Positions 251 through 53,511 of a stretch of DNA of 64,000 bases are shown here, piece by piece. The stretch lies in IMG/VR virus record IMGVR_UViG_3300028888_000054. One strand, written 5' to 3'. Each line of letters opens with the position of its first letter. Position 1 is the first letter of the stretch. The notes under the pieces are model-generated. The model saw only the letters and a program-made list of their open reading frames with translations. It was not told the origin of the DNA and did no database searches. Position numbers and translations under genes: made by a program. This DNA is from a virus. Taxonomy: Duplodnaviria; Caudoviricetes.

Positions 251-305
251 AAGGAGGCCGAGAATGAGTGAAAATTTAAAATCTTCTCATCCATTCTTGA
301 TTAAC

Positions 306-755
306 TTATGTTATTACCTCATCTATACTTTGGAAAATTGGGCAATTCTTTATACCGCCAGAATCATAATGCTTTTTCTTTTCTACGCAATATAAAAAAT
401 CACCTTCTTTTTTACATTTGTTGCAATATACACAACCCTTAAATGGTGGTAAATAAAATTCACAATTGATAATTATTGAAGAGCTATCAAATTGTCCAAA
501 ATTATTTGTATAAATCATTACGATTTTGTCTTCATATTCTACTCTTTTTTGGAAAGAACTGCTGCTCAAAAGCTCTTTATCTATAAGTTTTTCTAGTTTT
601 CGTTTTAAACAAAATCTTTGATCATAAGCATATTTTAAATACTTTTTATTTGTTGTTTTAAATGAAAAAACTTGCTCAACTATATCTTCTTTTAGGTTAT
701 ATGTTATACTTACAAAAAATGGTATTTTCTTTGCTATTTTTAATTTTGTTGCCAT
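306..755 (-). CDS. Hypothetical protein with C-terminal Cys cluster; probable leaderless start at 755 (MATK)
   Basis: ORF track 306..770; CxxCxxC...C...C motif; TTGACT-16-TATAAT at 762-789 ends 6 nt before ATG 755. Confidence 0.65.
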   Translation of the reverse strand: MATKLKIAKKIPFFVSITYNLKEDIVEQVFSFKTTNKKYLKYAYDQRFCLKRKLEKLIDKELLSSSSFQKRVEYEDKIVMIYTNNFGQFDSSSIIINCEFYLPPFKGCVYCNKCKKEGDFLYCVEKKKHYDSGGIKNCPIFQSIDEVIT

Positions 756-5406: not shown

Positions 5407-5415
5407 GTAATTAAC

Positions 5416-6390
5416 TTATGAGATTTTTAATAACATTGTGCATATTTTATAAACATCATCTAAAGAAATTCGTTTTCTACCATGATCTCTATAATTAGTA
5501 AAAATCAAATCTCCATAAAAGTATCTGTTTCCATCTACAAAAGCATTAAACTCATTTACTAATTTTATTTGTTGTTCTGGGGTTAAATCCTTTTCGCATT
5601 TTAAAGTAGCAAAAATTCTGTCATTCTTTTGCCCCTTATAAACATATCCTGGTTTATATTCTAGGCCAAAATGTTTGGTTCGAGTATCTAAACATCTAAC
5701 GTAAATATTAGTATTTGCTGGCTCGTCACCAATCACGCGCGAAAATATAGATTTAGTTCTTTTAAAGAAATCAAAAATTTCCCCACCAATCCTATAGCCA
5801 TATTTTCCATTTAAGCTGATTGGTATTTTATTACCGTTTCCCCCATTATTAAAAACAACTATACTGTTATCTTCCTGCTTGCCTTTTTTAAAATGAAAAG
5901 AACAAACATTGTAAGTAGTGTTTTTAAATACTTGATATGTAAAATAGTTTACATAATCCACATGATACTGAGAAAAGAATTTTTCTCTTACTTCTCTTGT
6001 TGCTTCGTCTGTAAAAAAATTAAGTGGGATAATTAAAATTCCTTCTTCACAGCCCATTATGCTTAATATAGAAGCTTTATACAAATCATCGGTTTGATAC
6101 TTATCAAAAATTTCTTTAAATTGATCTGTTTTATTTTTTGCCAAATAAGGTGGATTTGTAATTACAACTTTACCTGTATAATCAATTGGATTTAATAAAC
6201 TATCTCTATACTTTACTCTTGGGTCTTTTACATCTATATCGTAAAGTTCCCAATTTGTGTTTGGGGAGTATTCAAAAAGATCGCAAGCGCCCGCAAAAGG
6301 GTCTACTGCCTCTTGCGGGTAAAAATCTATCCCTTGTAAAATTTCTTTATAGTTTTCTGTAAAATGCTGCGTTTTTTTTAAATCACTCAT
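5416..6390 (-). CDS. N6-adenine DNA methyltransferase
   Basis: Motif I VDPFAGxxDL precedes motif IV ITNPPY. Confidence 0.88.
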   Translation of the reverse strand: MSDLKKTQHFTENYKEILQGIDFYPQEAVDPFAGACDLFEYSPNTNWELYDIDVKDPRVKYRDSLLNPIDYTGKVVITNPPYLAKNKTDQFKEIFDKYQTDDLYKASILSIMGCEEGILIIPLNFFTDEATREVREKFFSQYHVDYVNYFTYQVFKNTTYNVCSFHFKKGKQEDNSIVVFNNGGNGNKIPISLNGKYGYRIGGEIFDFFKRTKSIFSRVIGDEPANTNIYVRCLDTRTKHFGLEYKPGYVYKGQKNDRIFATLKCEKDLTPEQQIKLVNEFNAFVDGNRYFYGDLIFTNYRDHGRKRISLDDVYKICTMLLKIS

Positions 6391-6694
6391 TGCTAAACTT
6401 CCTATTTAGAAATGCCTGAACAGCGTTCCAAGAAGTTTCGGCTGGAAAGTGAAGAATTTCTACAATAGAGCATCTTTCGGTAATAATAATTGTTAACCCT
6501 TTTGTTCCTTTTTCATAACCGAAAACGTCAAACTCTGGTGTCATTGTAAATTCTATATAATTGTCTTCATTATTTATTTCTGAGTATGAAACTGTTTCCG
6601 TATTGTAGGCCACATCTTCATCCAATTTATATCCCTGAATTTTAAACTGAGATAAATCAGCAAAACCAATTGTTTCAACATCTACTCCTACCAT
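6383..6694 (-). CDS. Hypothetical protein
   Basis: ORF with AGGAG RBS inside an operon. Confidence 0.6.
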   Translation of the reverse strand: MVGVDVETIGFADLSQFKIQGYKLDEDVAYNTETVSYSEINNEDNYIEFTMTPEFDVFGYEKGTKGLTIIITERCSIVEILHFPAETSWNAVQAFLNRKFSNE

Positions 6695-6703
6695 AATTAT
6701 CTC

Positions 6704-6880
6704 CTAAAAATGATCTACAAATTCTTGATTTATTTTTTCAAGAAACTCTTCTAAAATCTTATAATCATAAAACTGCAATCTTAGTTCTACTTGTCCAGCG
6801 CCTTCTTCCACTGCAGACAGTATATCAACTTTATCGTCACATTCTTCACTTGTCAGGAAATTTAACGCATCTTTTGTCAT
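6704..6880 (-). CDS. Small hypothetical protein, 58 aa (MTKDALNFLTSEEC...)
   Basis: Read manually; ATGA overlap with the upstream gene; fills the operon gap. Confidence 0.6.
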   Translation of the reverse strand: MTKDALNFLTSEECDDKVDILSAVEEGAGQVELRLQFYDYKILEEFLEKINQEFVDHF

Positions 6881-7347
6881 GGGTGTTCCGCCTCTCCAAA
6901 CACTGGTTTTATGTAATAAATATGATCACTTGGCGCAGCCATAGGTTGCTCACTGATTAAGGGTGGAAGCTTAATTATAGGAATAGTATATTTCTTTAAA
7001 GATTTTTCTTGTTCCTTTTTCTCTTGTTTAAAAACTTCTACATTTCGTTCTTCTTCGAAATCTTCAGCATAACCTTCTTCAAAGTCTTCTACATAGTGCC
7101 CATCATATTCTCTTATAATTTCTTGAACTTCTTGTTCTTGTTGTTCTTCTTTCAAAAAACTATCAGCAACATCTCCAAAAAGAGGGCCCTTTTTTACCAT
7201 TTCTTGATAAGAGTTTTCAAGCATTTGTGCAGTGTTAAATCTTTCTATGTCATTATCAATGTCTTTTGTGAGCCAAGACCATCTTGCCTTTATTTTATCT
7301 ACTTGAGATTGCTGTGCTGTATCTACCTCTCTTTTAGTCATCTCCAA
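6877..7347 (-). CDS. Truncated paralog of the major capsid protein N-terminus
   Basis: RWSWLTKDIDNDIERFNTAQMLENSY vs MCP RWSWITEDIEDAETRLNTQLVLENSY; LISEQPMAAPSDHIYYI vs LVSVQPIQQPTGVIYYI. Confidence 0.8.
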   Translation of the reverse strand: MEMTKREVDTAQQSQVDKIKARWSWLTKDIDNDIERFNTAQMLENSYQEMVKKGPLFGDVADSFLKEEQQEQEVQEIIREYDGHYVEDFEEGYAEDFEEERNVEVFKQEKKEQEKSLKKYTIPIIKLPPLISEQPMAAPSDHIYYIKPVFGEAEHP

Positions 7348-7774
7348 AATCCTTTACATAGTGCTGCCCTGGATCGAGCTCTTTATCTTCTGGTTCTAGT
7401 GCTTGCGACATAACTGGAGAAGAAGTATAATATACTGGATTTACCCCATACATCCCCGTCTGGGCAGAATTACGGCATGCCCACATAAATGAAGACGCAA
7501 CTTGCGGATCAAAAAAGCGTATTCGAACTTCAGCTGCTTGCATATTAGGGTCGTATCCTGCAGCCTCTATGTTACAACTTTCAAGCATCCATGAGTTTGG
7601 ATTATTTAATAAAACTTCTGCAATATTTTGACTACTGAGCGTCATTGCTTGCTGCTGCACTTGTGCCCTAAGATTAGACATATCTGCTAAATAATCTTGA
7701 TAAACACCGATACTTGACGTAAGTTCTATATTATTTCTTTTTAAAGCTTCTATAACTTTTTGCGAAATCCCCAC
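7334..7774 (-). CDS. Hypothetical protein with weak KTSC-like segment
   Basis: GTG start overlaps the upstream TAG; SCNIEAAGYDP...EVRIRF weakly resembles a KTSC N-terminus. Confidence 0.5.
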   Translation of the reverse strand: MGISQKVIEALKRNNIELTSSIGVYQDYLADMSNLRAQVQQQAMTLSSQNIAEVLLNNPNSWMLESCNIEAAGYDPNMQAAEVRIRFFDPQVASSFMWACRNSAQTGMYGVNPVYYTSSPVMSQALEPEDKELDPGQHYVKDFGDD

Positions 7775-9300
7775 TAATTACTCCTTGGCTGGTATCTAAC
7801 AAGCATCGCCCTAATAGTATCTGGATTTGTAACCCAGTTTCTACTTCCAAACAAAATACCACCATTATCATCTGGATAAACTTTCATAAGATAAAAACCC
7901 GTCAAAAGTTTTTCCTTTATATGTTCATAGTATGACGCAAAGCAAGGAATTGTCAACTCCTCTCCGTTGCAATCTTCAGCAGTTATAAAAACCATCATCT
8001 TTCCATTCTTCTGCTGATGACATCTTAAATCTTTTACATGAACAAATACATAAGCAGATGCCTTATCTTCTTCACGAATTTCATTAAAATCTCTTAAACA
8101 CTTATTAAGAGATTTTAATTTTTCAATTTTTGCAACCATATCATCTGAGAATACTCCGTGAAAGAAACTACCACTAAGATAATTCTTTTCCATTTCCATA
8201 TATTCTTCATTTGAGGTCTTACCATCTAAATAATGATCTTCTACACATTTTTCCCAAACTTCTCTAAGTTTGTCTGGATTTTTGCTTGTCTTTTTATCAA
8301 CATAAAATTGCTCTGTGATTTTAAGATACTTTTTTCTTTCACCTTCAGGTATTAAATCATCAAAAGCACCACCACCAATTAAAGCAAGAGTGATTCTCTT
8401 ATTAACCTTAGTTCCAAGAGTTTTAATTATAAAATCAATAATACTCTTATAACCACCTTCTCTATGTTCTATAATGTTCTTTGCTGGTTCTTCACCAACA
8501 CCTTTAATTTCATTAAGCCCAAATCTTATTTCTTTTTCAGAAATTGGAGTAAAGTGAAGATTAGAACTATTTACATCAGGTGGCAAAATTTTAAAACCAT
8601 TTTTTTGAGCAGATTTAATAGAATCTTTTATAACATCATTTTTTGTTGCGTCATATGTTAAAGATGCAGCCCAAAAATATGGTTTAAAATAACGAGACAT
8701 ATAAAGAGTCTCACAAGCAACATAAGTATATGCGGCGGCGTGAGATTTATTAAAAGAATAAGCTGACAAAGTAATAAGATCTGCAGTAAACTCATCAATT
8801 TCCGCAGTTGTTAATTTACTCTTCGCTTCTTCTTTAATTGTATTAACCAATTTATCCCAAGCGTCCAAATCTTCTTGCTTTTTATTTGCCTTACCGAGTT
8901 TCTTCAAAAGTCCACGCGCGTAATTACCCTTTATTTTTCCATTTGAGAGATCTTCTACGAGTTTCATAATCTCCTCTTGGAAGAGGATACAGCCATGAGA
9001 ATCTTTCAAGAATTTAGATATAGGCTCTGGATACTTTGATCCTTCCGTTCCGTTTGCCACGAAGTCGTCAAACGAGAACGAAGAACCTGGTCTCGACAAA
9101 GCATTTAAACAAGTGAGTTCGTCAAAGTTTTGAGGAATTGCTCTCTGAATCATACCAGATGCAGTATTACCTGAAAACTGAAATATATTCGCTTGACTCT
9201 CATTTACTTGTTGGTATAACTGTTTATCTTCATAAGACATTCCATAATATAAAAATTCTTTTAATTCTTGCTTACTGACATTTTCTTGTAAAATTTTCAT
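7774..9300 (-). CDS. dnaE: DNA polymerase III alpha, C-terminal fragment (fingers, HhH, OB); start probably 9300
   Basis: IFQF, ALSRPG, SHGCILFQEE, YSFNKSHAAAY, ILPPDVNSS, IRFGLNEIKGVGE motifs. Confidence 0.9.
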   Translation of the reverse strand: MKILQENVSKQELKEFLYYGMSYEDKQLYQQVNESQANIFQFSGNTASGMIQRAIPQNFDELTCLNALSRPGSSFSFDDFVANGTEGSKYPEPISKFLKDSHGCILFQEEIMKLVEDLSNGKIKGNYARGLLKKLGKANKKQEDLDAWDKLVNTIKEEAKSKLTTAEIDEFTADLITLSAYSFNKSHAAAYTYVACETLYMSRYFKPYFWAASLTYDATKNDVIKDSIKSAQKNGFKILPPDVNSSNLHFTPISEKEIRFGLNEIKGVGEEPAKNIIEHREGGYKSIIDFIIKTLGTKVNKRITLALIGGGAFDDLIPEGERKKYLKITEQFYVDKKTSKNPDKLREVWEKCVEDHYLDGKTSNEEYMEMEKNYLSGSFFHGVFSDDMVAKIEKLKSLNKCLRDFNEIREEDKASAYVFVHVKDLRCHQQKNGKMMVFITAEDCNGEELTIPCFASYYEHIKEKLLTGFYLMKVYPDDNGGILFGSRNWVTNPDTIRAMLVRYQPRSN

Positions 9301-9306
9301 GATTAA

Positions 9307-9335
9307 ATTATACCCCTGAAGCTTTATTTTGTAAA
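9307..9335 (-). promoter_or_regulatory. sigma70-type promoter giving a leaderless mRNA for the DnaE C-terminal fragment
   Basis: TTTACA-17-TATAAT, then 6 nt to ATG 9300. Confidence 0.65.
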
Positions 9336-10180
9336 TATGATTTTGATACAATTTTTACAATCCCATCGTCGTCTTCAATCTTTACAAGCTCTTCATCTAC
9401 AGATTCTACAGCATTTGAAATTACTTCCAAAACTGTAATTGCCAAAAAGTCATACTTAATTACTCCAAGTTCATCCAACTCTGTGTTTCCACCATTTTCT
9501 ACAAACGCAGATGCTACTCCATCCTTTGTATGAACAACTGGAATATATTCCCAAACTGGTTTATCCATAATAAGACATCCACCTGCGTGCTGACCAACCT
9601 GACGCACCTGTCCTATAATTTTTGGAGTAAAGTCCAAATATGCTTTATTTCTCTCGTAAGTTTCATAAAGAACTGGATGATTTTCTGCATACATTTTCAT
9701 ATTTTCTTCAAAGCTCAACTCTTCATCAAGTTCCTTACAGAAATCATTACTCTCTTTAAATGGCACTTCACACTTTCTGAGAATATCCTTAATTGCAGAA
9801 GCTAAACCAACTGTTCCATAAGCCGCTACGCCCATTACTCTTTCGGGGCCATACTTTTCAATAAGCATTTGCTTTGCAGCTTCTTTTGCTTTTGGCTCGA
9901 AGTCTGTATCAATATCCAAACCACCAGAACCGCCACGTTTAATCTGAACAATTTCAAGAGGCTTTGATAAATCTACTTTGTCTGTTTTACCCAAAAAGAA
10001 CGGAAGAACATATCTATCATCGCATCTTTTTTTTGAATTTAAAATTTCATCAGCTATATTTATTTTTTCATCTTCTAATAACCACTTTGCTCTTCTTAGC
10101 TCTTTAAGAGCACGATCTTTATATTCTGGATACTCTTTTATTTTTTGAGCAACTAATTTCTTTAAATCTTCAAAAGTCAT
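9308..10180 (-). CDS. dnaE: DNA polymerase III alpha, middle catalytic (palm/thumb) fragment
   Basis: LDIDTDF, RQVGQHAGG and GVIKYDFL motifs carry the three catalytic Asp residues. Confidence 0.9.
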   Translation of the reverse strand: MTFEDLKKLVAQKIKEYPEYKDRALKELRRAKWLLEDEKINIADEILNSKKRCDDRYVLPFFLGKTDKVDLSKPLEIVQIKRGGSGGLDIDTDFEPKAKEAAKQMLIEKYGPERVMGVAAYGTVGLASAIKDILRKCEVPFKESNDFCKELDEELSFEENMKMYAENHPVLYETYERNKAYLDFTPKIIGQVRQVGQHAGGCLIMDKPVWEYIPVVHTKDGVASAFVENGGNTELDELGVIKYDFLAITVLEVISNAVESVDEELVKIEDDDGIVKIVSKSYLQNKASGV

Positions 10181-11124
10181 AAATTTTCCTCTAAAATTTC
10201 TTCTATAATTTTATAATCCCAATAAGGAATTGTCAATAATTTTATTTTTTTATTTTTTGCAAAACACTTTTTTATATCATCTCTTTCTTTTTGCTCTAAC
10301 AGATTTTTATTACCGCCAAAATAATCTATCGGTTTATAATGTTGCACACCTTGATACTCAATTAAAAGATTTTTGGAAGGAATGTAAAAGTCAAATGGTA
10401 ATGGTTTTTGGGCTTTTCCGCAACAATCTTTGAAAATAAATTCTTGATTATAACTTATTCTTTTTGCTTCTAAGTAGACTCTAATTTTTCTTTCACCTTT
10501 ACTTTCTCTGCATTTTGGGCAACTGTTATTCTGGTTTTCAGAAATATGATGCATTGGTGTTTGAAAAAAACTTCCGTGTTTTGGGCAAATAATTTCTATT
10601 TTTGTATGATTATTTATATAATTTACTTTTGAGTAATCATATCTATCACCATGAATTTCTTTTGCTTTTTTAACAAACTCTTCTGTTGTTAATCTTCTTT
10701 TTAAGGATCTATCATCTTGAGCGCATTTTGGACACTTATCTCCGCTTAAATGATTTGTTGGTGTTTGAAAAAAACTTCCATGTTTTGGACAAATAATTTC
10801 TATTTTTGTTTTTGCATTTATATAATTTACTTTTGAATAATCATATTTATCTCCATGAACTTCTTTTGCTTTTTTAACAAACTCTTCTGTTGTTAATCTT
10901 TGCTTTTCCCCTTTTTCTTTAAGTTTTTGTTTTCCACAGTCTGGGCACCCTTGTCCTCTAAAATGCTGTCCAGGAGTCTGTTTAAAAGAACCATGTTTTG
11001 GACAAATAATTTCTATTTTTGTTTGATAATTAACATAATTAACCATTGAATAATCATATTTATCACCATGAACTTCTTTTGCTTTTTTAATAAATTCTTC
11101 TGTTGTTAATTTTTTAGTAGTCAT
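10177..11124 (-). mobile_element. Free-standing homing endonuclease: three Zn-ribbon repeats plus a Vsr/DUF559-like nuclease
   Basis: 3x HGDKYDYS...ICPKHGxFxQxP..H....CPxC; PFDFYIP...IEYQGVQHY; lies between dnaE fragments. Confidence 0.82.
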
Positions 11125-11162
11125 ATATTTATCTTGTTACCGATCGAACTTTTATAACAAAT

Positions 11163-12410
11163 TTATCTCTCGTTAAAATAATCATATTTTACACTCACTA
11201 ATCTTTCAGAAGATACAAACCTTTCAAACAATAATCCAAGTTTAATTGGATCAATTACCCAAGAAGTAATTCCAAGACAAGCACAAGTCAAACTTCCACC
11301 TGCAGAACCGCGCCCACTTCCAAGCATATACTCCTGCTGTTTTGCCCAATTAATTACAGAAGACAAATTCAACAAATAACGATAAGCACCCTTCTTTAAA
11401 AGAGTCTCAAGTTCTAGTTCAAGTCTGTCCTTATATTCTTGTGGACAATCATCATAATCACAACCAAAATGCTTTGCCAGTCCTTCTTTTGCAAGTTTTA
11501 CAAAATCTTCTTCCTCATCAAAAGAGAATCTTGGCAACTTCATACCTGTCCCCAAAGGAATAACAAAATTGCACTTTTCTGCAATCTTATCTGAATTTGC
11601 ACACCATTCTTCTATTTGTTCATCTGTGTATCCATAATTCCAACCCTTGTTAAACTGCTTGAAATCATCTACGCTCTGATAGAACAATGATTTACACTTG
11701 TATGTATCATCTCCTTCTGAATCTTCATCTTTTCTAAGATTGAAAATAAATCTCTGAGTTTGCGCACCTTCTCTTGTTGCATAATGCACGTCGCCCGTAA
11801 TTACAACGGGAACGTTATATTTTTCTGCAATTTTTATAATCCAATCATTATATTTCTTTTGGTCTTCTACAAGTTCGTTTAACTGAATTTCGGCATAAAA
11901 GTTTTCGCCAAACTCATCAACAAATCTTTTAAAATAAGCTTCTGCTTTTTCTTCATTGCCTGCAAGAACGCATTGAGAGAATATAGATGCCAAACAAGCC
12001 GAGCCTACAATTATCCCTTCTTTGTATTGAAACAATTCTTCAAATGTATTTCTTGGTTTATAATAAAAGTGATCTTCATCAATGTTTGAGATATAATTCA
12101 AATGACAAAGATTTTTCCAACCAGTTTCATTAGAAGCCAAAAGAATAATATGATTATAATGAGTTCTCTTTCTTTTCTTACCTTCCATTGTTACCAATTC
12201 TTCTACAAGATATCCTTCCATTCCGAGAATTGGTTTTACACCTTTTGAAATTGCATACTGTTGAAATTTAAAAAGTCCAGACATCATTCCGTGGTCTGTT
12301 AAGGCAAGCGCTTTATGCCCATTATTTACTGCCTGATCTACTAATTCTGTTACTGAAGATACAGCGTCATAAAATGACCCCTCTTTACTATGAACATGTA
12401 AATGAACCAT
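11163..12410 (-). CDS. dnaE: DNA polymerase III alpha, N-terminal fragment (PHP domain and start of palm); start 12410
   Basis: HLHVHS, ALTDHG, GDVHY, GRGSAGGSL, LLFERF motifs; GAGGTG RBS. Confidence 0.92.
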   Translation of the reverse strand: MVHLHVHSKEGSFYDAVSSVTELVDQAVNNGHKALALTDHGMMSGLFKFQQYAISKGVKPILGMEGYLVEELVTMEGKKRKRTHYNHIILLASNETGWKNLCHLNYISNIDEDHFYYKPRNTFEELFQYKEGIIVGSACLASIFSQCVLAGNEEKAEAYFKRFVDEFGENFYAEIQLNELVEDQKKYNDWIIKIAEKYNVPVVITGDVHYATREGAQTQRFIFNLRKDEDSEGDDTYKCKSLFYQSVDDFKQFNKGWNYGYTDEQIEEWCANSDKIAEKCNFVIPLGTGMKLPRFSFDEEEDFVKLAKEGLAKHFGCDYDDCPQEYKDRLELELETLLKKGAYRYLLNLSSVINWAKQQEYMLGSGRGSAGGSLTCACLGITSWVIDPIKLGLLFERFVSSERLVSVKYDYFNER

Positions 12411-12432
12411 CTTTTCACCTCTTTTTCTTTTA

Positions 12433-12461
12433 ATTATACCACAAATAAAAAAAGCAGTCAA
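12433..12461 (-). promoter_or_regulatory. sigma70 promoter with extended -10, embedded in a terminator (12447-12476)
   Basis: TTGACT-17-TATAAT with TG-n; GCAGTCA / TGACTGC hairpin. Confidence 0.7.
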
Positions 12462-12495
12462 GACTGACTGCTTTTTGAGTTCTTATGTTACGGCG

Positions 12496-12906
12496 TTATT
12501 CGTCAAGGAACGGTTTTCGCCATTTTGCTGCTGGTTTTACAGTAAACCAAGTTGGCTTTACAATTTCTATTGTTGCCTCATTAGTGCTACCAAGATTTCC
12601 TGCTATAGCAGGACATAAATAAAGATCTATTCCATTACTCTTAAACTTTTTTAAAGTTTCCACAAACTCATCAAGAACAGTAACATCCGCATAAAGCGAA
12701 TCGCCTTCAACATGGAAATTTGTAATTGTGCCAACCAAATGTTCAATATCGGCATCATCTTTAAAACCATCATCTGGCACATTATCAACTAATGGAACAA
12801 TATAATCTCTATTTTCTTTTTCAAACTCTTTTAAAGTTTTTAAAGAATAATAATATCCATTTGCATTTACAATATCAGCTCTTAAAAATTCAACTGTCTT
12901 TTTCAT
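12496..12906 (-). CDS. Degenerate paralog of the prohead protease (gp21 fold), catalytic motifs missing
   Basis: FLRADIVNANGYYYSLKTLKE vs FSEADKMNRNHRIYPKHILKE in the 52754 protease; GELEH, STRCSG and IDVV motifs not retained. Confidence 0.6.
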   Translation of the reverse strand: MKKTVEFLRADIVNANGYYYSLKTLKEFEKENRDYIVPLVDNVPDDGFKDDADIEHLVGTITNFHVEGDSLYADVTVLDEFVETLKKFKSNGIDLYLCPAIAGNLGSTNEATIEIVKPTWFTVKPAAKWRKPFLDE

Positions 12907-14112: not shown

Positions 14113-14217
14113 AAGCAAATTATATATAAATATATAAAATTTGTCAAGAACAAATTTTGCTTAAATCTATTTTTTTCGCATGTATTCAAGATAAAATTAA
14201 ACGGAGGTTTTAGTTTA

Positions 14218-15042
14218 ATGGCAGCAGATAAAAGCAAAAAACTTTCGCTTCTTAATGAAGAACTTGACGAAGAATCAGCAACATACATTCAAGAGTCAAT
14301 TGAAAACTGGAAAGAGGGTGTTATGGCCCAGCTTCAAGAAGAAGTAGAAAGAGCAAAAGCAGACAAACTAGAAGAACTGGAAGAGCTTAATCTTAGATAC
14401 CGTGAGCAGTTGGCAGAAGAATATTCTGACAAACTTACAACAGCTCTTGCAGAACTTAAAGAAAGTGTTAAAGCTGATGCTACCGCTAGCGTATTGAAAA
14501 ACAACCCAGAATTAAAAATTCTTGAACAAATTAAAGATTTGGTAGCCCCACTTCTTGATGAAAACTTCAGAGAAAATTCTTATTCTGATACAATCGCTCA
14601 ATTAGCGGAAGAAAACGCAGCTTTAAGAAGAGAACAGGAAATTACAGAGGGCGCACAAGTACTTGCTGAACTTCTTGCACCATATGCAGACACAACTCAA
14701 AAGTTGGTTCTCTCTATGATTAAAGAAGGTAGCCCAGAAGAGGTAACTGAACAATTCTATAGTATTATGGAATCGCTACAAGACGTTTTTGGTGAAGCTG
14801 AAGACGGCGACGATAACGGAGATGACGGCGACGACGATGACGACGCTAAGAAATCAAAGAAAAACGGCGACGACGATGACGATGACGAAAACGGTGACGA
14901 TGATGACGACGAAGACGGAGAAGATGATGACCTTGGTGAGTCTTTCTTAGACGAAGGATTCTATGGTGATGACGATGACGATGTAGAGAATGACAAAGAT
15001 TTCTCTAAAATCAAAAACATTATGAAGTCTTATATAAAATAA
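14218..15042 (+). CDS. Prohead core/scaffold protein (gp22-like) with Asp-rich tract
   Basis: Acidic coiled coil immediately upstream of the MCP; many L/I-x-E sites. Confidence 0.75.
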   Translation: MAADKSKKLSLLNEELDEESATYIQESIENWKEGVMAQLQEEVERAKADKLEELEELNLRYREQLAEEYSDKLTTALAELKESVKADATASVLKNNPELKILEQIKDLVAPLLDENFRENSYSDTIAQLAEENAALRREQEITEGAQVLAELLAPYADTTQKLVLSMIKEGSPEEVTEQFYSIMESLQDVFGEAEDGDDNGDDGDDDDDAKKSKKNGDDDDDDENGDDDDDEDGEDDDLGESFLDEGFYGDDDDDVENDKDFSKIKNIMKSYIK

Positions 15043-15061: not shown

Positions 15062-16555
15062 ATGCTTACAAATAATTTAGTTGATAAAGCGCGTTTTGAA
15101 GAGCAGCTTAACGACCGTTGGTCTTGGATCACAGAAGACATCGAAGATGCCGAAACAAGACTTAATACTCAATTGGTTCTTGAAAACTCATATAGATATA
15201 TGATTCAAGAAGGTTCTATTGCACGCAACTGGCTTGAAAATAACATTCTTTCAGAAGAAGTTATCGAAGAAGCGCCACAGATGAGAGGAGCAGTTGGTGA
15301 TTATGTAATCCCTAAAGTAATGTTCCCAATCATCAGACGTGTTATGCCAGAACTTATTGCTAACAAATTGGTTTCAGTTCAGCCAATTCAGCAGCCAACT
15401 GGTGTAATTTACTACATCAATTACGACTACTCAAATGACAAGGGAACTATCAAAGCAGGCAACGAATTCTCTGGTGCACCACAGCAGACAACTCCAGCTT
15501 TCGCTACATGGTACTCTTCAGAAAAAATTGGACCTTTTGTTGCAAAAACAGATAAATCTACTGGTGTAGTTGACTTCGGTGCACAAACTGGTATCACAAA
15601 CTTCTTGGGAACAAACCCAGCTGAATATAAAATTAAACGTTTCGAAGTTTACAACAGAACAACAGGTAAAGCAATCGCTACTGTTTATGGTGGAAGCAAA
15701 GATAACGTAACATTTGACCCTGCAACTGGTGCTATTACAGTAACAGTTCCAGCATCAGCATTCTTCGGCGACGAAGATAATGAATTTGAAGCATTCTTGG
15801 TATACGATCAGGAAGGAACTTCAAAGATTCCAGAGATGGAATTCCACATCGACCACATGAACGTTGAGACAACTGAACGTAAATTGAAGGTTAGATGGAC
15901 TAAAGAAGCTGAACAGGATATGATGGCTTATCACAAGATCGACGTAGAACAGGAGCTTGTAAAAGTTGCTTCTATTCAGACAAACTACGAAGTAGACCGT
16001 GAAGTTATCAGATTCATTGATGATCATATCATCTCTGACCTTTCTCAGATTCACAACTGGACAGACGACGCAGCAACTACAGGTAATAATACACAGGGTA
16101 ACTACCTTGATAGACACCGCTGCTTGGCACAGAAACTTTATGCTGCTTGTACAAAAGTAGCTACATTCAACCACCTTGGACCATGTGATTGGGCAGTTGT
16201 ATCTCCAAAGATTGCAGCAGTTCTTCAGATGCTCCCAGACTGGAAAGCAGGTGAAATCGCTAGTGGTAAATCAACTTACTACAATGCTGGTACACTCGGA
16301 AACGGTTCTTTGGCAATCTACGTTGATCCAAACAGATGCGGTGCTCAAGAAGACGAAATCACTCTTGGATACAAATCTAAGGATTCAACATACGGTGCTG
16401 GTGTAGTTTACTCACCATACGCTAACTGGATGTCAGGAACAGTTGTTAACCCAGACAACTTCAACAACGTAAGAGGATTCTTCAACAGATATGCTATTTC
16501 TATGGCACCTCGTGGAGAATACAACTACGCAAGAGTTAGAATTAACAACTTGTAA
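15062..16555 (+). CDS. gp23: Major capsid protein (T4 gp23 family)
   Basis: IRRVMPELIA, VQPIQQPTGVIYY, RKLKVRWTKEAEQDM, GVVYSPY, RYA motifs; AGGAGG RBS. Confidence 0.95.
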   Translation: MLTNNLVDKARFEEQLNDRWSWITEDIEDAETRLNTQLVLENSYRYMIQEGSIARNWLENNILSEEVIEEAPQMRGAVGDYVIPKVMFPIIRRVMPELIANKLVSVQPIQQPTGVIYYINYDYSNDKGTIKAGNEFSGAPQQTTPAFATWYSSEKIGPFVAKTDKSTGVVDFGAQTGITNFLGTNPAEYKIKRFEVYNRTTGKAIATVYGGSKDNVTFDPATGAITVTVPASAFFGDEDNEFEAFLVYDQEGTSKIPEMEFHIDHMNVETTERKLKVRWTKEAEQDMMAYHKIDVEQELVKVASIQTNYEVDREVIRFIDDHIISDLSQIHNWTDDAATTGNNTQGNYLDRHRCLAQKLYAACTKVATFNHLGPCDWAVVSPKIAAVLQMLPDWKAGEIASGKSTYYNAGTLGNGSLAIYVDPNRCGAQEDEITLGYKSKDSTYGAGVVYSPYANWMSGTVVNPDNFNNVRGFFNRYAISMAPRGEYNYARVRINNL

Positions 16556-16694: not shown

Positions 16695-17543
16695 CTATTT
16701 TAACAACGCTAATACATTTTGTGATTGAGAATTTGCTTGTGACAACATAGCCACAGATGACTGTGAAAGAATCTGCTGCTTTGTATACTCTACCATTTCA
16801 GTAGCCATATCTGCATCTCTCACTCTTGATTCTGCAGCTTGTGTGTTTTCTGCTGCTATGTTAATACCTTTCTGAGCCATCTCCATTCTGTTCTGATAAG
16901 CGCCAAGATCTGCTCTCTGCTTATTTACATTCTTTAAAGCTTCGTCAAGAGTTGTAATTGTTACATTTGCCTCGTCAGGTGATGAAATAGAAATCTGATT
17001 ATCTTCACCCTGGACACCTTTCAACCCAAGAGCTGAAGCTGTCATTGTTCCAATATAAGCACGAATGTTTTGGTCAACATTTGCACCAACCTGGAATTGC
17101 ATTATACCATCAGACTCTCTTGAAAATCTACCAGTCAAAAGGTTCATTCCGTTAAACTGAGCAGAAGAAGCAATTCTATCTACTTCAGCAACAAGCTGAG
17201 AAACTTCTACCTGAATCTGCATTCTGTCTTCATCTGAGTATACACCATTTGAAGCCTGAACTGCAAGTTCGCGAATTCTCTGAAGAACATCAGTTGTTTC
17301 TGCAAGATAACCTTCTGCTACCTGAACAAAAGAAACTGCATCGCCAATGTTTCTTGAAGCTTGACTAAGACCTCTAATTTGAGATCTCATTTTTTCAGAT
17401 ACAGCTAAGCCAGAAGCATCATCTCCTGCTTTGTTAATTCTTTCACCGCTTGAAAGTTTTGCCATTGAGTTCTGTAAGTTTGCTGCATTAATTCCTTCTT
17501 GGCGACTAGCAAACAAACTTGCCATATTGTTATTTATTACCAT
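16695..17543 (-). CDS. flaB: Flagellin, spirochete FlaB type
   Basis: [65 protein letters not shown]; 282 aa with a short variable region as in Treponema FlaB. Confidence 0.95.
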
Positions 17544-29584: not shown

Positions 29585-29622
29585 GATAATTTACCTCTAC
29601 TAAATTAACTTATTTTAAATAC

Positions 29623-35801: not shown

Positions 35802-35859
35802 ACACCATATATAGTGTTTTGTTTTACTTTATAAGTTAATAATCCACTAGATAGAGGTT
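35802..35859 (+). promoter_or_regulatory. Tandem NrdR-box-like operators upstream of nrdD
   Basis: ACACCATATATAGTGT (35802) and CCACTAGATAGAGGTT (35844), 42 bp apart. Confidence 0.6.
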
Positions 35860-39948: not shown

Positions 39949-39974
39949 TTTAAGTTAATTAAAAGAAGGAAAAA

Positions 39975-42836
39975 ATGTCAGAGAACAACAAGATTGAAGA
40001 AATTATAAACGAATACACAATCACACCAGAAAACATTGGTAGTAAAATTACTAATAAAAATATCTTAGACCGCTGGAGAGCATTTAGCGAAAGAGAAGAA
40101 CCAAACCCAAAACAGTTAGATATGGATAATTATTTTGATGTTGAGGGTGTAATGACACCATATGTTAGAGTTTGGTTTCGTGGCTTAGGTAATGGTGATA
40201 ATGAGTGGATAGAGGTTGGTGGAGAAGAAGGTGAAAACTATTCACAAAATAATTTTTTTGAATCTATGACAATTGAAGACAATGGCTTTTTAGCTCTTAC
40301 ACTTAATCTTATAGATAGAACAAATTATAGAATCCAAAGATTATTAGAGCTAGCAAGTTATAGCCAATCAAAAAAGGCCGCAGAAGCAAAAAAAAATTCA
40401 GAAGAAACAAAAGGCTTTTTAACAGCGACAGCAAAAGAAGAAGGTGAGGAAGACTTATCTCTTAGTTTATTTAAAGAAAATAATATATCAACTAACAACC
40501 TAAAAATCCGTTTCGGATATTCAGACGTAACAAACATTAATGACGTTAATTCAACTAAGGAATTTTTTAAAGCAGTTGGTAGAGAAGCTGAAGCAAATAG
40601 CAGATGGGTAAGTAATAAAACTCAATACGCTTCAACAGAAGTAGGCGATAAAACAGTAGCAATAGGCTCTGTAAATTTTACCAATAATACTCAAACACAA
40701 CCAAAATCTTACGAAGAAGAATTTTACATAATTGGTTTCTCTACACAAATTTCAACTGCAGGAATAAAATACTCAATAAAGGCAATAAGTGCAGCAAATT
40801 TATTTTTAAATAGTTATAAACTTGTTCAAAACTACTCAAAATTAGTTGGAACACCAAGAGAAGTAATGGCTTACTTCATGAAAACATTTAATGAAAAAGA
40901 TGTAGGTTTAAAAGTTTATTGGAGTGGTGGTAAAGAAAATGCACGAGTAGAAAATTTTACCAGAAAAAAAGTTGCTAATGGTATAATAATAGAAAAAGAA
41001 ATGGAAGACCAAACAGGGGAAGAAGGAGCTAAAAAAGAAGACAATGAAGAGCTTAAAAAAAGCACAGAGAGTTTAACCTTTTTGGAAAAAGTTTTTCAAC
41101 GTCTTGGTTTTTTACAGGATCTTTTTTCAAAAAACATAGATAGCTCTATTTCGCAAGAAAACCTAATAGGAAGTAACAACTTCTATACAGAGCTTCGCCA
41201 AGATGGACTAACATTGGATGTTAAAAATGAAAACAGCGAAACAGATGCTGCTGATGTAGATAGAATTTACGATATGCTAACTAAAGCTGACATTGACGAA
41301 ATCTTAGTTGATGATGCAACAGCCGAAGCTCAAAAACTAACTTCTAATTTAGTTTCTCAATCAGAAAAAGCCGTAGATTCAAACGGCAACACCAAAGACA
41401 TAACAGCCAAAAAGGTGATACAGTTTACAACTAACGTCCCAAAAGTGTTAGTTCCAAAAAATTTTCAAACAACTGGAAATAATACAAATACATATAACAG
41501 CTTAATCTCTTATGCAGAAAAAGGTGACACAAAAAGTTTTATCAATGTAATAAAAAATAATAACGAAAAAAATTATATCAAAGGTGCTGACGAAGTTACG
41601 TATAACGCTATCCAAAAAGATTATGGTGGTTCCTTATTGTTTAGTAATGAATTTAAAAGTAGCGACAAAGACAACATAGACTGGCGTAAGAAAAACTATA
41701 ATTTTATAAGTTTATGGCTCTTTGAACTTTGTGTAAAATGTCAAGAAGATTTAGATAGCTACAAACAAGACAACAAAAACGACAAAGACAAATGGGAAGG
41801 AGTAATCAAATTAATTATTAAAACAATAGCATGTATAAATAAAGCAAAGTCCGACAATGCTGACAGTAAGAAAGAATTATTTAAAGAACTGCAAGAAATA
41901 GAAGAAGAAACTGCAAAAACTGTAGAAAACTTAAATAAAGCAATAACTAATCTAAAAAGTTCCATAAATGCACAAAAGCAACTTTTAGAGCAGGAAACAA
42001 AACAAATAGAAATAGTTCTTGGTAGCGAAAGAACGTCACAGGGAGATGGAAACGACTCAAAGCAACTCTACAAATCCATTTCTTCAATTTTTTCAAGCTA
42101 TACGAGCCAAGCCCCTTGTCATTATGAGATTAAAAACAGCTCTAAGGAAGTAACGGTTAAAGATGCAGACGGAAATGACAGAGTTTTAACAAAAGAAGAA
42201 TCTGCTGTCCCAAGAAAAATGTCATGGGCATGCTTAACCGATGAAAAAGGCGGAGCAAATGGAGCAGTAGTTATATTTTATTACAATTCGCCGCTTAAAT
42301 TTAAAAAAATAAGAAAATACTGTTGGGGAACTGGAAATCCAAACCAACATTGTATAAAAGACTTATCTGTTTCTTCAAGCACCGAATTTGCAAACGTTCT
42401 ATCAAAAACCGCTTATGCAACTAGTGATAACGTTGCCGTAAAAGAACAAGACGGTAATAAGATTACTGCCGAAGTTACAGATACAAATGGAATATACAGA
42501 ACAGTTATTTTAAACGAAAATGATTTGATTGAAAGAGCAAAAGAAAACATATATAAAGGTTCAATGACTATACTTGGTGATCCTTCATTTAAGTTTTGCG
42601 AAAGAGTGCAGCCATATACACTTCCGATATATATAGAAGTTAAGCTTCAAACAGAACAATCATGGTTTACAGTTGATGAAAAAAAAGCAGATGAAAAAAA
42701 TAGAGACAGTATAAATCAAGAAAGTGTTATAACTGGTTATTATTTAGTATCAAAAATTACGCACCAAATAGATAAATCTGGTTTTTATACGACACTTGAA
42801 ATAATGAAATATCCAGGCTTAGAGAAAGAAGTCTAA
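39975..42836 (+). CDS. Baseplate hub protein (gp27/gpD-like)
   Basis: IRFGYS; C-terminal SMTILGDP...GYYLVSKITHQI...FYTTLE. Confidence 0.6.
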   Translation: MSENNKIEEIINEYTITPENIGSKITNKNILDRWRAFSEREEPNPKQLDMDNYFDVEGVMTPYVRVWFRGLGNGDNEWIEVGGEEGENYSQNNFFESMTIEDNGFLALTLNLIDRTNYRIQRLLELASYSQSKKAAEAKKNSEETKGFLTATAKEEGEEDLSLSLFKENNISTNNLKIRFGYSDVTNINDVNSTKEFFKAVGREAEANSRWVSNKTQYASTEVGDKTVAIGSVNFTNNTQTQPKSYEEEFYIIGFSTQISTAGIKYSIKAISAANLFLNSYKLVQNYSKLVGTPREVMAYFMKTFNEKDVGLKVYWSGGKENARVENFTRKKVANGIIIEKEMEDQTGEEGAKKEDNEELKKSTESLTFLEKVFQRLGFLQDLFSKNIDSSISQENLIGSNNFYTELRQDGLTLDVKNENSETDAADVDRIYDMLTKADIDEILVDDATAEAQKLTSNLVSQSEKAVDSNGNTKDITAKKVIQFTTNVPKVLVPKNFQTTGNNTNTYNSLISYAEKGDTKSFINVIKNNNEKNYIKGADEVTYNAIQKDYGGSLLFSNEFKSSDKDNIDWRKKNYNFISLWLFELCVKCQEDLDSYKQDNKNDKDKWEGVIKLIIKTIACINKAKSDNADSKKELFKELQEIEEETAKTVENLNKAITNLKSSINAQKQLLEQETKQIEIVLGSERTSQGDGNDSKQLYKSISSIFSSYTSQAPCHYEIKNSSKEVTVKDADGNDRVLTKEESAVPRKMSWACLTDEKGGANGAVVIFYYNSPLKFKKIRKYCWGTGNPNQHCIKDLSVSSSTEFANVLSKTAYATSDNVAVKEQDGNKITAEVTDTNGIYRTVILNENDLIERAKENIYKGSMTILGDPSFKFCERVQPYTLPIYIEVKLQTEQSWFTVDEKKADEKNRDSINQESVITGYYLVSKITHQIDKSGFYTTLEIMKYPGLEKEV

Positions 42837-42854
42837 GTTAATTTTAGGTGAAAT

Positions 42855-52753: not shown

Positions 52754-53392
52754 TTAAAACTCTGCATCAAAAATTTCTTTAAATGTCCTACCTTTTTTTA
52801 CTGGTTCCTCAAAACCTTCATAAACTGTATTAGTAACTGCTTTCTGACAAGAAGGAGTTCCTACTACATCAATAGAAATAATTTTTAAACCAGGCTGAAC
52901 TTCAACGGCGTTGCTAACACCTTCAGCAAGTGGGCCGTGATAAGGTTTAACCTTTCCAGAACATCTTGTAGAGAAACAAATTTTAAACCCAGATTTTGCC
53001 AACTTTTCAACTGTCTGACCAGCTTCTGTAAGAGTAGGAATAGCCTTTCCTACAATTTGACCCTTTTCTTCATTCCAAGAAAGCTCTGGGAATGTAACAG
53101 CGATTCTTTCAAGGTGGCACTTAGCATCTGAAGCGTGTTCAAGCTCTCCATAAATAGGCTGACCACTAGCAATAGATTCGTTCCAAGCATTTTCGAATGC
53201 TTCTTTAAGAATATGTTTAGGATAGATTCTATGGTTTCTGTTCATTTTATCTGCTTCAGAAAATACGCCTCTAAAACAAATAGATTTTTTACCATCTCTA
53301 ATCTCTTCTTCTGCTAAAATAGCTCCATCTATACTAAAATCTTCGCTAATAAGGTTTTCATCAGTTGACTGTTCATTAATCATGTTTTCCAT
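52754..53392 (-). CDS. gp21: Prohead core protease (T4 gp21 family)
   Basis: NRNHRIYP, GELEH, FSTRCSG, IDVVGTPS. Confidence 0.9.
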   Translation of the reverse strand: MENMINEQSTDENLISEDFSIDGAILAEEEIRDGKKSICFRGVFSEADKMNRNHRIYPKHILKEAFENAWNESIASGQPIYGELEHASDAKCHLERIAVTFPELSWNEEKGQIVGKAIPTLTEAGQTVEKLAKSGFKICFSTRCSGKVKPYHGPLAEGVSNAVEVQPGLKIISIDVVGTPSCQKAVTNTVYEGFEEPVKKGRTFKEIFDAEF

Positions 53393-53511
53393 AAACACCT
53401 CTTATTATATTAACTTTGCAAAAAAATAAAAAAATTTGATTATTTTTTAAAAGGAGGATCTTCGATTAAAAAATAATAATTGCTATTATAAGTTAATTAA
53501 TATAATGGAGA

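Follow-up and report, generated by a model that had tools for sequence, protein, structure and literature searches.

Here we describe ORF156, a small open reading frame (ORF) in a stretch of 64,000 nucleotides, hereafter the window, from a virus of the class Caudoviricetes (IMG/VR record IMGVR_UViG_3300028888_000054). ORF156 is related to the N-terminus of the phage's own gp23-family major capsid protein, and sequence comparison gives good support to its origin as a partial copy of the capsid gene, of which the 5' end (about the first 120 codons) was duplicated. Judged by its substitution pattern it is a constrained, fast-evolving accessory gene and no neutral relic. To our knowledge, and from the libraries searched, a free-standing and conserved copy of a gp23-type propeptide with its maturation sites and N-arm has not been described. 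For its function we tentatively favour a role as prohead cargo, which would be targeted by the capsid-type propeptide and processed by the S77 prohead protease. A second gene, ORF136, weakly resembles that protease and is discussed separately. The window belongs to a metagenomic contig, 191 kb long, of a T4-like huge phage, and no DNA or protein match to the region, to ORF156 or to ORF136 was found among GenBank phages.

An earlier note on this DNA had claimed that ORF156 matches the capsid protein in its propeptide and in its first mature segment, and alignment bore this out. Against capsid residues 2-120 ORF156 gave a BLASTP E-value of 4e-12 at 29% identity, the alignment being interrupted by a 32-residue acidic insert in ORF156. 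Both flanking blocks scored above shuffled sequences: the N block reached 108 (shuffles 25+/-5, equalled by 0 of 2000) and the C block 49 (shuffles 22+/-4, equalled by 1 of 2000). The motifs RWxW, LENSY and QP..P..YY are confined, within the 64-kb window, to ORF156 and the capsid protein. ORF156 was also said to end in VFGEAE, a string shared with the scaffold protein, and in the window it is indeed found in these two proteins only. QDVFGE is invariant in six scaffold orthologues, where it marks the junction of the helical part and the acidic tail, and a tail of the form FGE[AG]x recurs in part of the ORF156 family.

Measured against the gp23 family (PF07068), ORF156 has the propeptide and the conserved N-arm segment, as judged by BLASTP and the block shuffles, and it ends at residue 154, before the HK97 body. 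No Pfam or PHROG match was obtained, the PF07068 profile included; NCBIfam gave nothing, and the protein atlas no usable match. ORF156 showed no sign of evolving in concert with its own capsid gene; its N module resembles every capsid protein of the clade to the same degree. The likely start codon is the ATG at 7341, which is preceded at 9 nt by an AAGGA ribosome-binding site within the end of the upstream gene, ORF146; a TTG at 7347 is the alternative. The capsid protein itself is about 25% identical to T-even gp23, and these alignments start at its residue 71. Coordinates of all features are collected in the table.

Table. Features of the window discussed in the text (positions in the window; residues refer to the protein in question)
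Feature	Position	Strand	Remarks
ORF156, capsid N-terminus paralogue ("mini-capsid")	6877..7341	-	154 amino acids, as in the database gene call
ORF156 N module, residues 1-54	7180..7341	-	helical hairpin with homology to the propeptide of the capsid protein (RWSW, LNT, LENSY)
ORF156 acidic linker, residues 55-110	7012..7179	-	FLKE and IIRE sites; predicted disordered
ORF156 tandem motifs YVEDFEE and YAEDFEE	7075-7095 and 7051-7071	-	invariant columns in the family alignment
ORF156 C module, residues 111-154	6880..7011	-	shortened capsid N-arm and first strand (QP..P..YY, 6913-6948), then VFGEAE (6886-6903)
gp23-family major capsid protein	15062..16555	+	Pfam Gp23, 8.8e-56
Capsid propeptide, about residues 1-71	15062-15274		twin sites ILSE and VIEE precede AP
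Scaffold protein	14218..15042	+	acidic C-terminal region; VFGEAE at 14785-14802
Intact S77 (T4 gp21-type) prohead protease	52754..53398	-	PF03420, 7e-16; phrog_207, 5e-35; PDB 5JBL, 1e-6
ORF136, truncated and weakly protease-like protein	12496..12906	-	last gene of the first sigma70-type operon
ORF146, upstream cassette partner of ORF156	7334..7774	-	fast-evolving body, invariant tail
ORF58 and ORF103, downstream cassette members	6704-6880 and 6383-6694 (together 6383..6880)	-	conserved, 79-91% identity
Sigma70-type match TTGACA-17-TATAAT, 12/12	14119..14147	-	at the head of the leftward operon whose last gene is ORF136
Sigma70-type match, 11/12, with TG	12433-12461	-	heads the DnaE operon that holds ORF156
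Terminator-like hairpin, 12-bp stem	12449-12476	both	between ORF136 and DnaE; overlapping the -35 box of the promoter match before DnaE

The structure of ORF156 was predicted with AlphaFold2 (AF2) on a 14-sequence family alignment. Residues 1-54 form the sole confidently folded part (predicted local distance difference test, pLDDT, 72-93), with helices at residues 3-20, 22-25 and 31-51. The pLDDT of residues 55-154 is below 50, which suggests that they are disordered. The linker contains 21 Asp and Glu residues against 6 Lys and Arg. All 17 invariant columns of the family alignment fall within Y85-K107, a stretch with no counterpart in the capsid protein. The C module aligns with the N-terminal stretch of T-even gp23 that is best conserved between T4-type capsid proteins and lacks the RR..P.LIA half of it. 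When the ORF156 model was compared with viral models by Foldseek, no match had E<=0.001; a 523-amino acid viral protein matched 42 hairpin columns (root-mean-square deviation 1.1), which at E=2.8 is not significant. The acidic motif was also compared with the conserved C-terminal L.E.F..E.F.GDD of the scaffold protein, but the spacing is off by one residue and we make no claim of kinship.

T4 gp21 cuts after the Glu of L/I-x-E and takes 65 residues off gp23 (PMC9026906). All capsid proteins of the present clade carry two such sites directly before AP, and in the window capsid protein these sites, ILSE and VIEE, coincide with the point where homology to T-even gp23 begins. FLKE and IIRE of ORF156 stand at the corresponding place, before GHYV, where the capsid protein has GDYV. 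An L/I-x-E site is found within the 30 residues before the acidic motif in 14 of the 15 listed family members, and the FLxE column is kept even where the head of the protein is not capsid-like. By its sequence, ORF156 has the layout of a T4 internal protein, namely an N-terminal part followed by a putative L/I-x-E site for a gp21-type protease. The conservation of this site is suggestive only, because such sites are common in Glu-rich sequence.

About 15 relatives of ORF156 were found, all of them metagenomic. Ten were retrieved at 52-68% identity by a word-indexed search, and a full hidden Markov model search, covering 1.8 billion representatives, yielded P0132, P0133, P0134, P0148 and P0154 in addition; no relative was found in IMG/VR. 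The most divergent members, P0132 and P0154, retain both capsid-like modules, P0132 being the most capsid-like of all, so that the ancestor probably had both. Several members are reduced. In an abundant 227-kb clade (L006, which is LR756505.1, and L007) the gene encodes 109 amino acids, the head is not capsid-like and the C module is degenerate; the acidic motif and an FGE..H tail are intact. In P0007 the second half of the hairpin is gone by an in-frame deletion. The orthologue in L002 (L002:9814-10258) is split into 59 and 85 amino acids by one additional A in an A-run, a frameshift that could be real or an assembly error. L005, the nearest relative of the window as judged by ORF136, is without ORF156 and ORF58. 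The hairpin also occurs on another body: P0136 (L016:3733-4017; also P0145), a 94-amino acid early protein of a related phage, joins this hairpin to a C-terminal part that is unrelated, its gene being placed between the scaffold gene and the position of ORF136. The hairpin therefore behaves as a portable module.

The genomic position of ORF156 is fixed. On every contig that could be judged, the gene for the C-terminal part of DnaE (DnaE-C) is followed by ORF146-like, ORF156-like, ORF58-like and ORF103-like genes and an N6-methyltransferase gene, in this order. The body of ORF146 is 28-71% identical among relatives, and its C-terminal tail, GQHYVKDFGDD (7340-7360), is invariant, including in L013, L014 and L006. 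The residues of this tail are fixed and its synonymous sites are variable; constraint at the DNA level was considered as the cause of the invariance and rejected, since synonymous sites vary. ORF146 and ORF156 may share a partner, because the tail of ORF146 resembles the acidic motif of ORF156.

The ratio of nonsynonymous to synonymous substitution rates (dN/dS) of ORF156 is 0.30-0.46 (four pairs, dS 0.4-0.9; 72% identity between the window and L001). The values for the other genes, again with the identity between the window and L001, are 0.30-0.57 for ORF146 (71%), 0.05-0.19 for ORF58 (86%), 0.12-0.30 for ORF103 (91%) and 0.04-0.20 for DnaE-C (98%). Within ORF156 the ratio is about 0.26 in the acidic part, 0.46 in the head and 0.57 in the tail. 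L006 and L007 differ at a ratio of 0.95, which derives from very few changes. The earlier note had set neutral decay, with a dN/dS near 1 and frameshifts in relatives, against a functional role. No such ratio was seen in the four pairs, and it is because of their values that we regard ORF156 as constrained; a frameshift did turn up, once, in the A-run of L002, with the frame open in about 15 diverged relatives.

Both ORF156 and ORF136 had been placed in operons driven by sigma70 and away from the head genes. The former is supported by consensus matches of 12/12 and 11/12, with no late-type motif nearby, and the -35 box of the match at 14147-14119 is conserved in seven relatives. The latter is only half the truth: a single 100-bp spacer serves as the start of the ORF136 operon and, in the divergent direction, of scaffold and capsid transcription. 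Another motif, TAAGTTAAT, has seven exact copies in the window (300-308, 5410-5418, 29604-29612, 35832-35840, 39951-39959, 42834-42842 and 53489-53497). Six of the seven are correctly oriented and lie 3-21 nt 5' of the start of a long ORF, in most cases a tail or head gene, and the copy at 5410 ends 3 nt before the ATG of a gene of 386 amino acids. From this arrangement TAAGTTAAT is probably a late (or middle) promoter element of the phage. The scaffold gene has the variant AAGATAA. The same variant at 7389 was considered as an embedded late promoter and rejected, as the window contains 69 copies of this 7-mer and not all relatives have conserved it. Given the presence of sigma70-type promoters and the absence of the late-type motif upstream, early or middle expression is a reasonable inference for ORF156 and ORF136.

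The function that we favour, though with less than even confidence, is that of a capsid-targeted, S77-processed prohead cargo protein, the acidic fragment of which would act as a core component or as an ejected protein. The hairpin would dock on the partner of the capsid propeptide, i.e. the scaffold core of the assembling prohead, and ORF156 would thereby be taken into the prohead. The S77 protease would then cut it at the conserved sites and release a fragment that is acidic and disordered and bears two motifs of the YVEDFEE type. This fragment would be either a transient component of the core or an internal protein that is ejected with the DNA. In T4, N-terminal propeptides target cargo into the core (PMC9026906), and the present phage possesses a gp21-type protease beside the propeptide-like hairpin and the sites of ORF156. 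Evolution that is faster than in neighbouring genes, at a dN/dS of 0.30-0.46 against 0.04-0.20, loss in L005 and replacement of the head in L006 and L007 likewise resemble the T4 internal proteins. The twin L/I-x-E sites appear to fit loading and processing in the prohead at least as well as a decoy in the cytoplasm. Several observations weigh against such loading. The invariant core of the family is the acidic motif and not the targeting hairpin, which the commonest clade is without. Neither the N-arm stub nor the VFGEAE tail plays a part in the model, and the conservation of L/I-x-E sites is weak evidence in a protein so rich in Glu. ORF156 moreover shares a sigma70-type operon with DnaE, and no copy of TAAGTTAAT, exact or with one mismatch, was found on the minus strand between 5418 and 9302.

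The early-type promoter and the absence of a late motif speak instead for an early mimic that acts in the cytoplasm, as the earlier note had proposed. Such a protein would be produced ahead of the capsid protein and would occupy the factors that bind the N-terminus of the nascent capsid protein, be they a host sensor, EF-Tu (as with the Gol region of T4), a chaperonin, the scaffold or the protease. It would blunt capsid-triggered defence, govern the timing of assembly or act as an assembly poison for related phages. Several bacterial defence systems are triggered by capsid proteins and prohead proteases (PMC13728456). Fast evolution and variable presence are also typical of anti-defence genes, a methyltransferase is encoded in the same operon, and ORF156 unites three look-alikes of head proteins: the propeptide, the N-arm and the VFGEAE of the scaffold. 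Its C module, furthermore, aligns with the best-conserved N-terminal stretch of gp23, as is described for the EF-Tu-binding Gol region (PMC3014915). That module is however without the RR..P.LIA half, the commonest clade does without the capsid-like head, and a counter-defence survey of November 2026 shows no capsid-fragment decoy (PMC13728456). Binding to Lit/EF-Tu or to CapRel would also be expected to activate the sensor early, unless the binding is silent (PMC3014915, PMC13728456). Since the most conserved part of ORF156 is an acidic tandem motif with no capsid counterpart, mimicry cannot be the whole story, and we consider the early mimic rather unlikely. The narrower proposal, that an early and stripped-down capsid N-terminus antagonises the host factors recognising the nascent capsid, in immunity or through EF-Tu, we rate as unlikely. 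If true, the antagonist would be the first capsid-derived decoy, and other early proteins such as P0136 would reuse its hairpin as a portable module.

The prominence of the acidic motif, the only stretch that is invariant family-wide, would be explained if the likeness to the capsid were historical and the motif did the work, ORF146 and ORF156 being adaptors for one replication or early partner (DnaE, ORF58, ORF103 or a host protein). The tail of ORF146, invariant at the protein level with varying synonymous sites, the constant place of the four-gene cassette after DnaE-C and the persistence of members that are without a capsid-like head all agree with this. Yet the hairpin is well folded and clearly capsid-like even in P0132 and P0154, and its recurrence in a second protein suggests that it is retained for a reason; we also know of no replication motif like YVEDFEE. 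We accordingly give adaptors a low probability. Much the least probable is that ORF156 is the functionless, decaying remnant of a failed duplication. The +1 frameshift in L002, the in-frame deletion in P0007, the absence from L005 and the ratio of 0.95 between L006 and L007, based on few changes, are what decay might look like. They are opposed by the open frame in about 15 diverged relatives, the 17 invariant columns, the dN/dS of 0.30-0.46 at a dS of 0.4-0.9, and a fixed position with translational coupling.

ORF136 is a separate matter, nothing tying it functionally to ORF156. It belongs to a family with 133 matches, of which the 120 listed are 134-136 amino acids long and 70-94% identical; its gene lies 5' of DnaE at every locus fetched. 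In IMG/VR it matched two short contigs; a further match there, L010, was rejected as spurious, being situated inside a 4417-amino acid gene on the opposite strand. The earlier note had seen in ORF136 the layout of gp21 without its motifs. The catalytic His and the IDVV motif are indeed missing, the likeness to the protease is weak, and the Ser position, said to be lost with the rest, mostly keeps its Ser. BLASTP against the window protease gave E=0.066 over 21 residues. With hhalign, the ORF136 family profile was aligned to one built from 27 relatives of the protease in the window; the alignment is colinear over about 100 columns (residues 7-107 against 46-152; E=0.004, probability 8%), and its score was reached by 1 of 300 column or block shuffles. 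Pfam S77 matched 5 of 25 family members below threshold, at best with E=0.02 (residues 7-80 against profile positions 50-125), and the best relative scored 14.8 bits, the PF03420 gathering cut-off being 27. ORF136 itself has no Pfam match at E<=0.1. DUF2213, which we take to belong to the same protease clan as S77, matched 16 of 25 members below its gathering score. Among the 30 nearest clusters of the protein atlas, six of S77 and two of S80 were found at 0.94.

In the hhalign alignment, which is of low confidence, the catalytic His (GELEH) falls on the variable position 45 (Asp, Asn or Gly) of the ORF136 family and the Ser of STR on position 98, where 22 of 25 members have Ser and the other 3 Cys. 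By this alignment ORF136 does not possess the S77 pair of catalytic His and Ser. It corresponds to residues 46-152 of the 214 of the protease and ends soon after, so that the third of the domain with IDVV is absent. His56, Asp69 and Ser70 are invariant in the family. From these comparisons ORF136 is probably a true homologue of the prohead proteases, and most likely a very diverged and shortened member of their fold without the canonical His. Chance likeness is the less probable alternative, and a doubtful one. In its favour, all matches are below curated thresholds, the BLASTP E-value and the hhalign probability are poor, the unrelated family PSMA-like_N scores equally against the ORF136 family, a PDB profile search misses 5JBL, and the AF2 model (pLDDT 38.6) is unusable. 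It is countered by the agreement of four weak but colinear signals, namely the hhalign shuffles (1/300), S77, DUF2213 (16/25) and the atlas (8/30). As to function, ORF136 had been taken for a decoy, and this we do not uphold: it is 82-94% identical across relatives at a dN/dS of 0.2-0.3, ranks with the best conserved genes of this region and is as conserved as the capsid protein, which speaks for a core role and against a decoy in an arms race. From this conservation it looks like a core gene of the phage clade.

Several neighbouring genes deserve mention. An intact flagellin gene (16695-17543) adjoins the capsid gene and is kept in L001, L005, L006 and L007. DnaE (7774-12461) is encoded in three genes of 432, 290 and 525 amino acids, and a DUF723-type homing endonuclease gene (10177-11124) sits between the first two. 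In relatives the endonuclease is found at different breakpoints or is missing (L001, L002 and L006), and it is therefore mobile. An MspI-like endonuclease gene is inserted beside the divergent scaffold/early promoter in L001 (L001:3872-4549) and L016 (L016:2724-3377), and is not present in the window. Between the window and L001, DnaE-C is 98% and the capsid protein 75% identical; the genomes are therefore mosaic.

ORF156 copies the part of the capsid protein that is made first and later discarded. If loading into the prohead is true, it would represent a new cargo route into T4-type heads, with a capsid propeptide as the targeting signal; if antagonism is true, it would be a capsid-derived blocker of host recognition. 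Either reading leads to a short and defined module, comprising a 50-residue hairpin and a 7-residue acidic motif. Phages of this clade are known from metagenomes only, which is a practical limit.

Among known systems, the T4 internal proteins IPI, IPII and IPIII and the Alt protein enter the scaffold core by an N-terminal peptide, which the gp21-type protease removes after L/I-x-E, and the remainder persists in the head and enters the next host (PMC9026906). Like these, ORF156 is small, variable and encoded outside the head gene cluster. The T4 targeting peptides, however, have 10-19 residues and are unrelated to the gp23 propeptide, whereas the candidate targeting part of ORF156, known from its sequence, is a 50-residue capsid-propeptide hairpin that is followed by an N-arm stub. 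With T4 gp23 itself, ORF156 shares a propeptide and maturation sites, as well as a portion of the N-terminal stretch that is conserved. The Gol region ranks as the best-conserved part of gp23 and binds EF-Tu (PMC3014915); we matched it to ORF156 by description and not by coordinates. In contrast to gp23, ORF156 is without the HK97 body and retains just half of this conserved stretch, and T4 is without a free-standing copy. The T4 vertex protein gp24 is, like ORF156, the product of a capsid gene duplication in a T4-type phage, but gp24 is a full-length structural part with the HK97 fold and ORF156 keeps only about the first 120 residues' worth. ORF136, for its part, is colinear with the first two thirds of S77 (T4 gp21, 5JBL) and DUF2213, including the AD..N.N...Y....L block and the Ser strand; it differs from S77 in having no His at the catalytic position and no C-terminal third, in its operon on the replication side and in scores below the cut-offs. 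Small proteins that copy an assembly interface and redirect capsid assembly are represented by CpmB of SaPI and Sid of P4. Those are encoded by parasites of phages and mimic the scaffold, whereas here the phage encodes a copy of its own capsid N-terminus.

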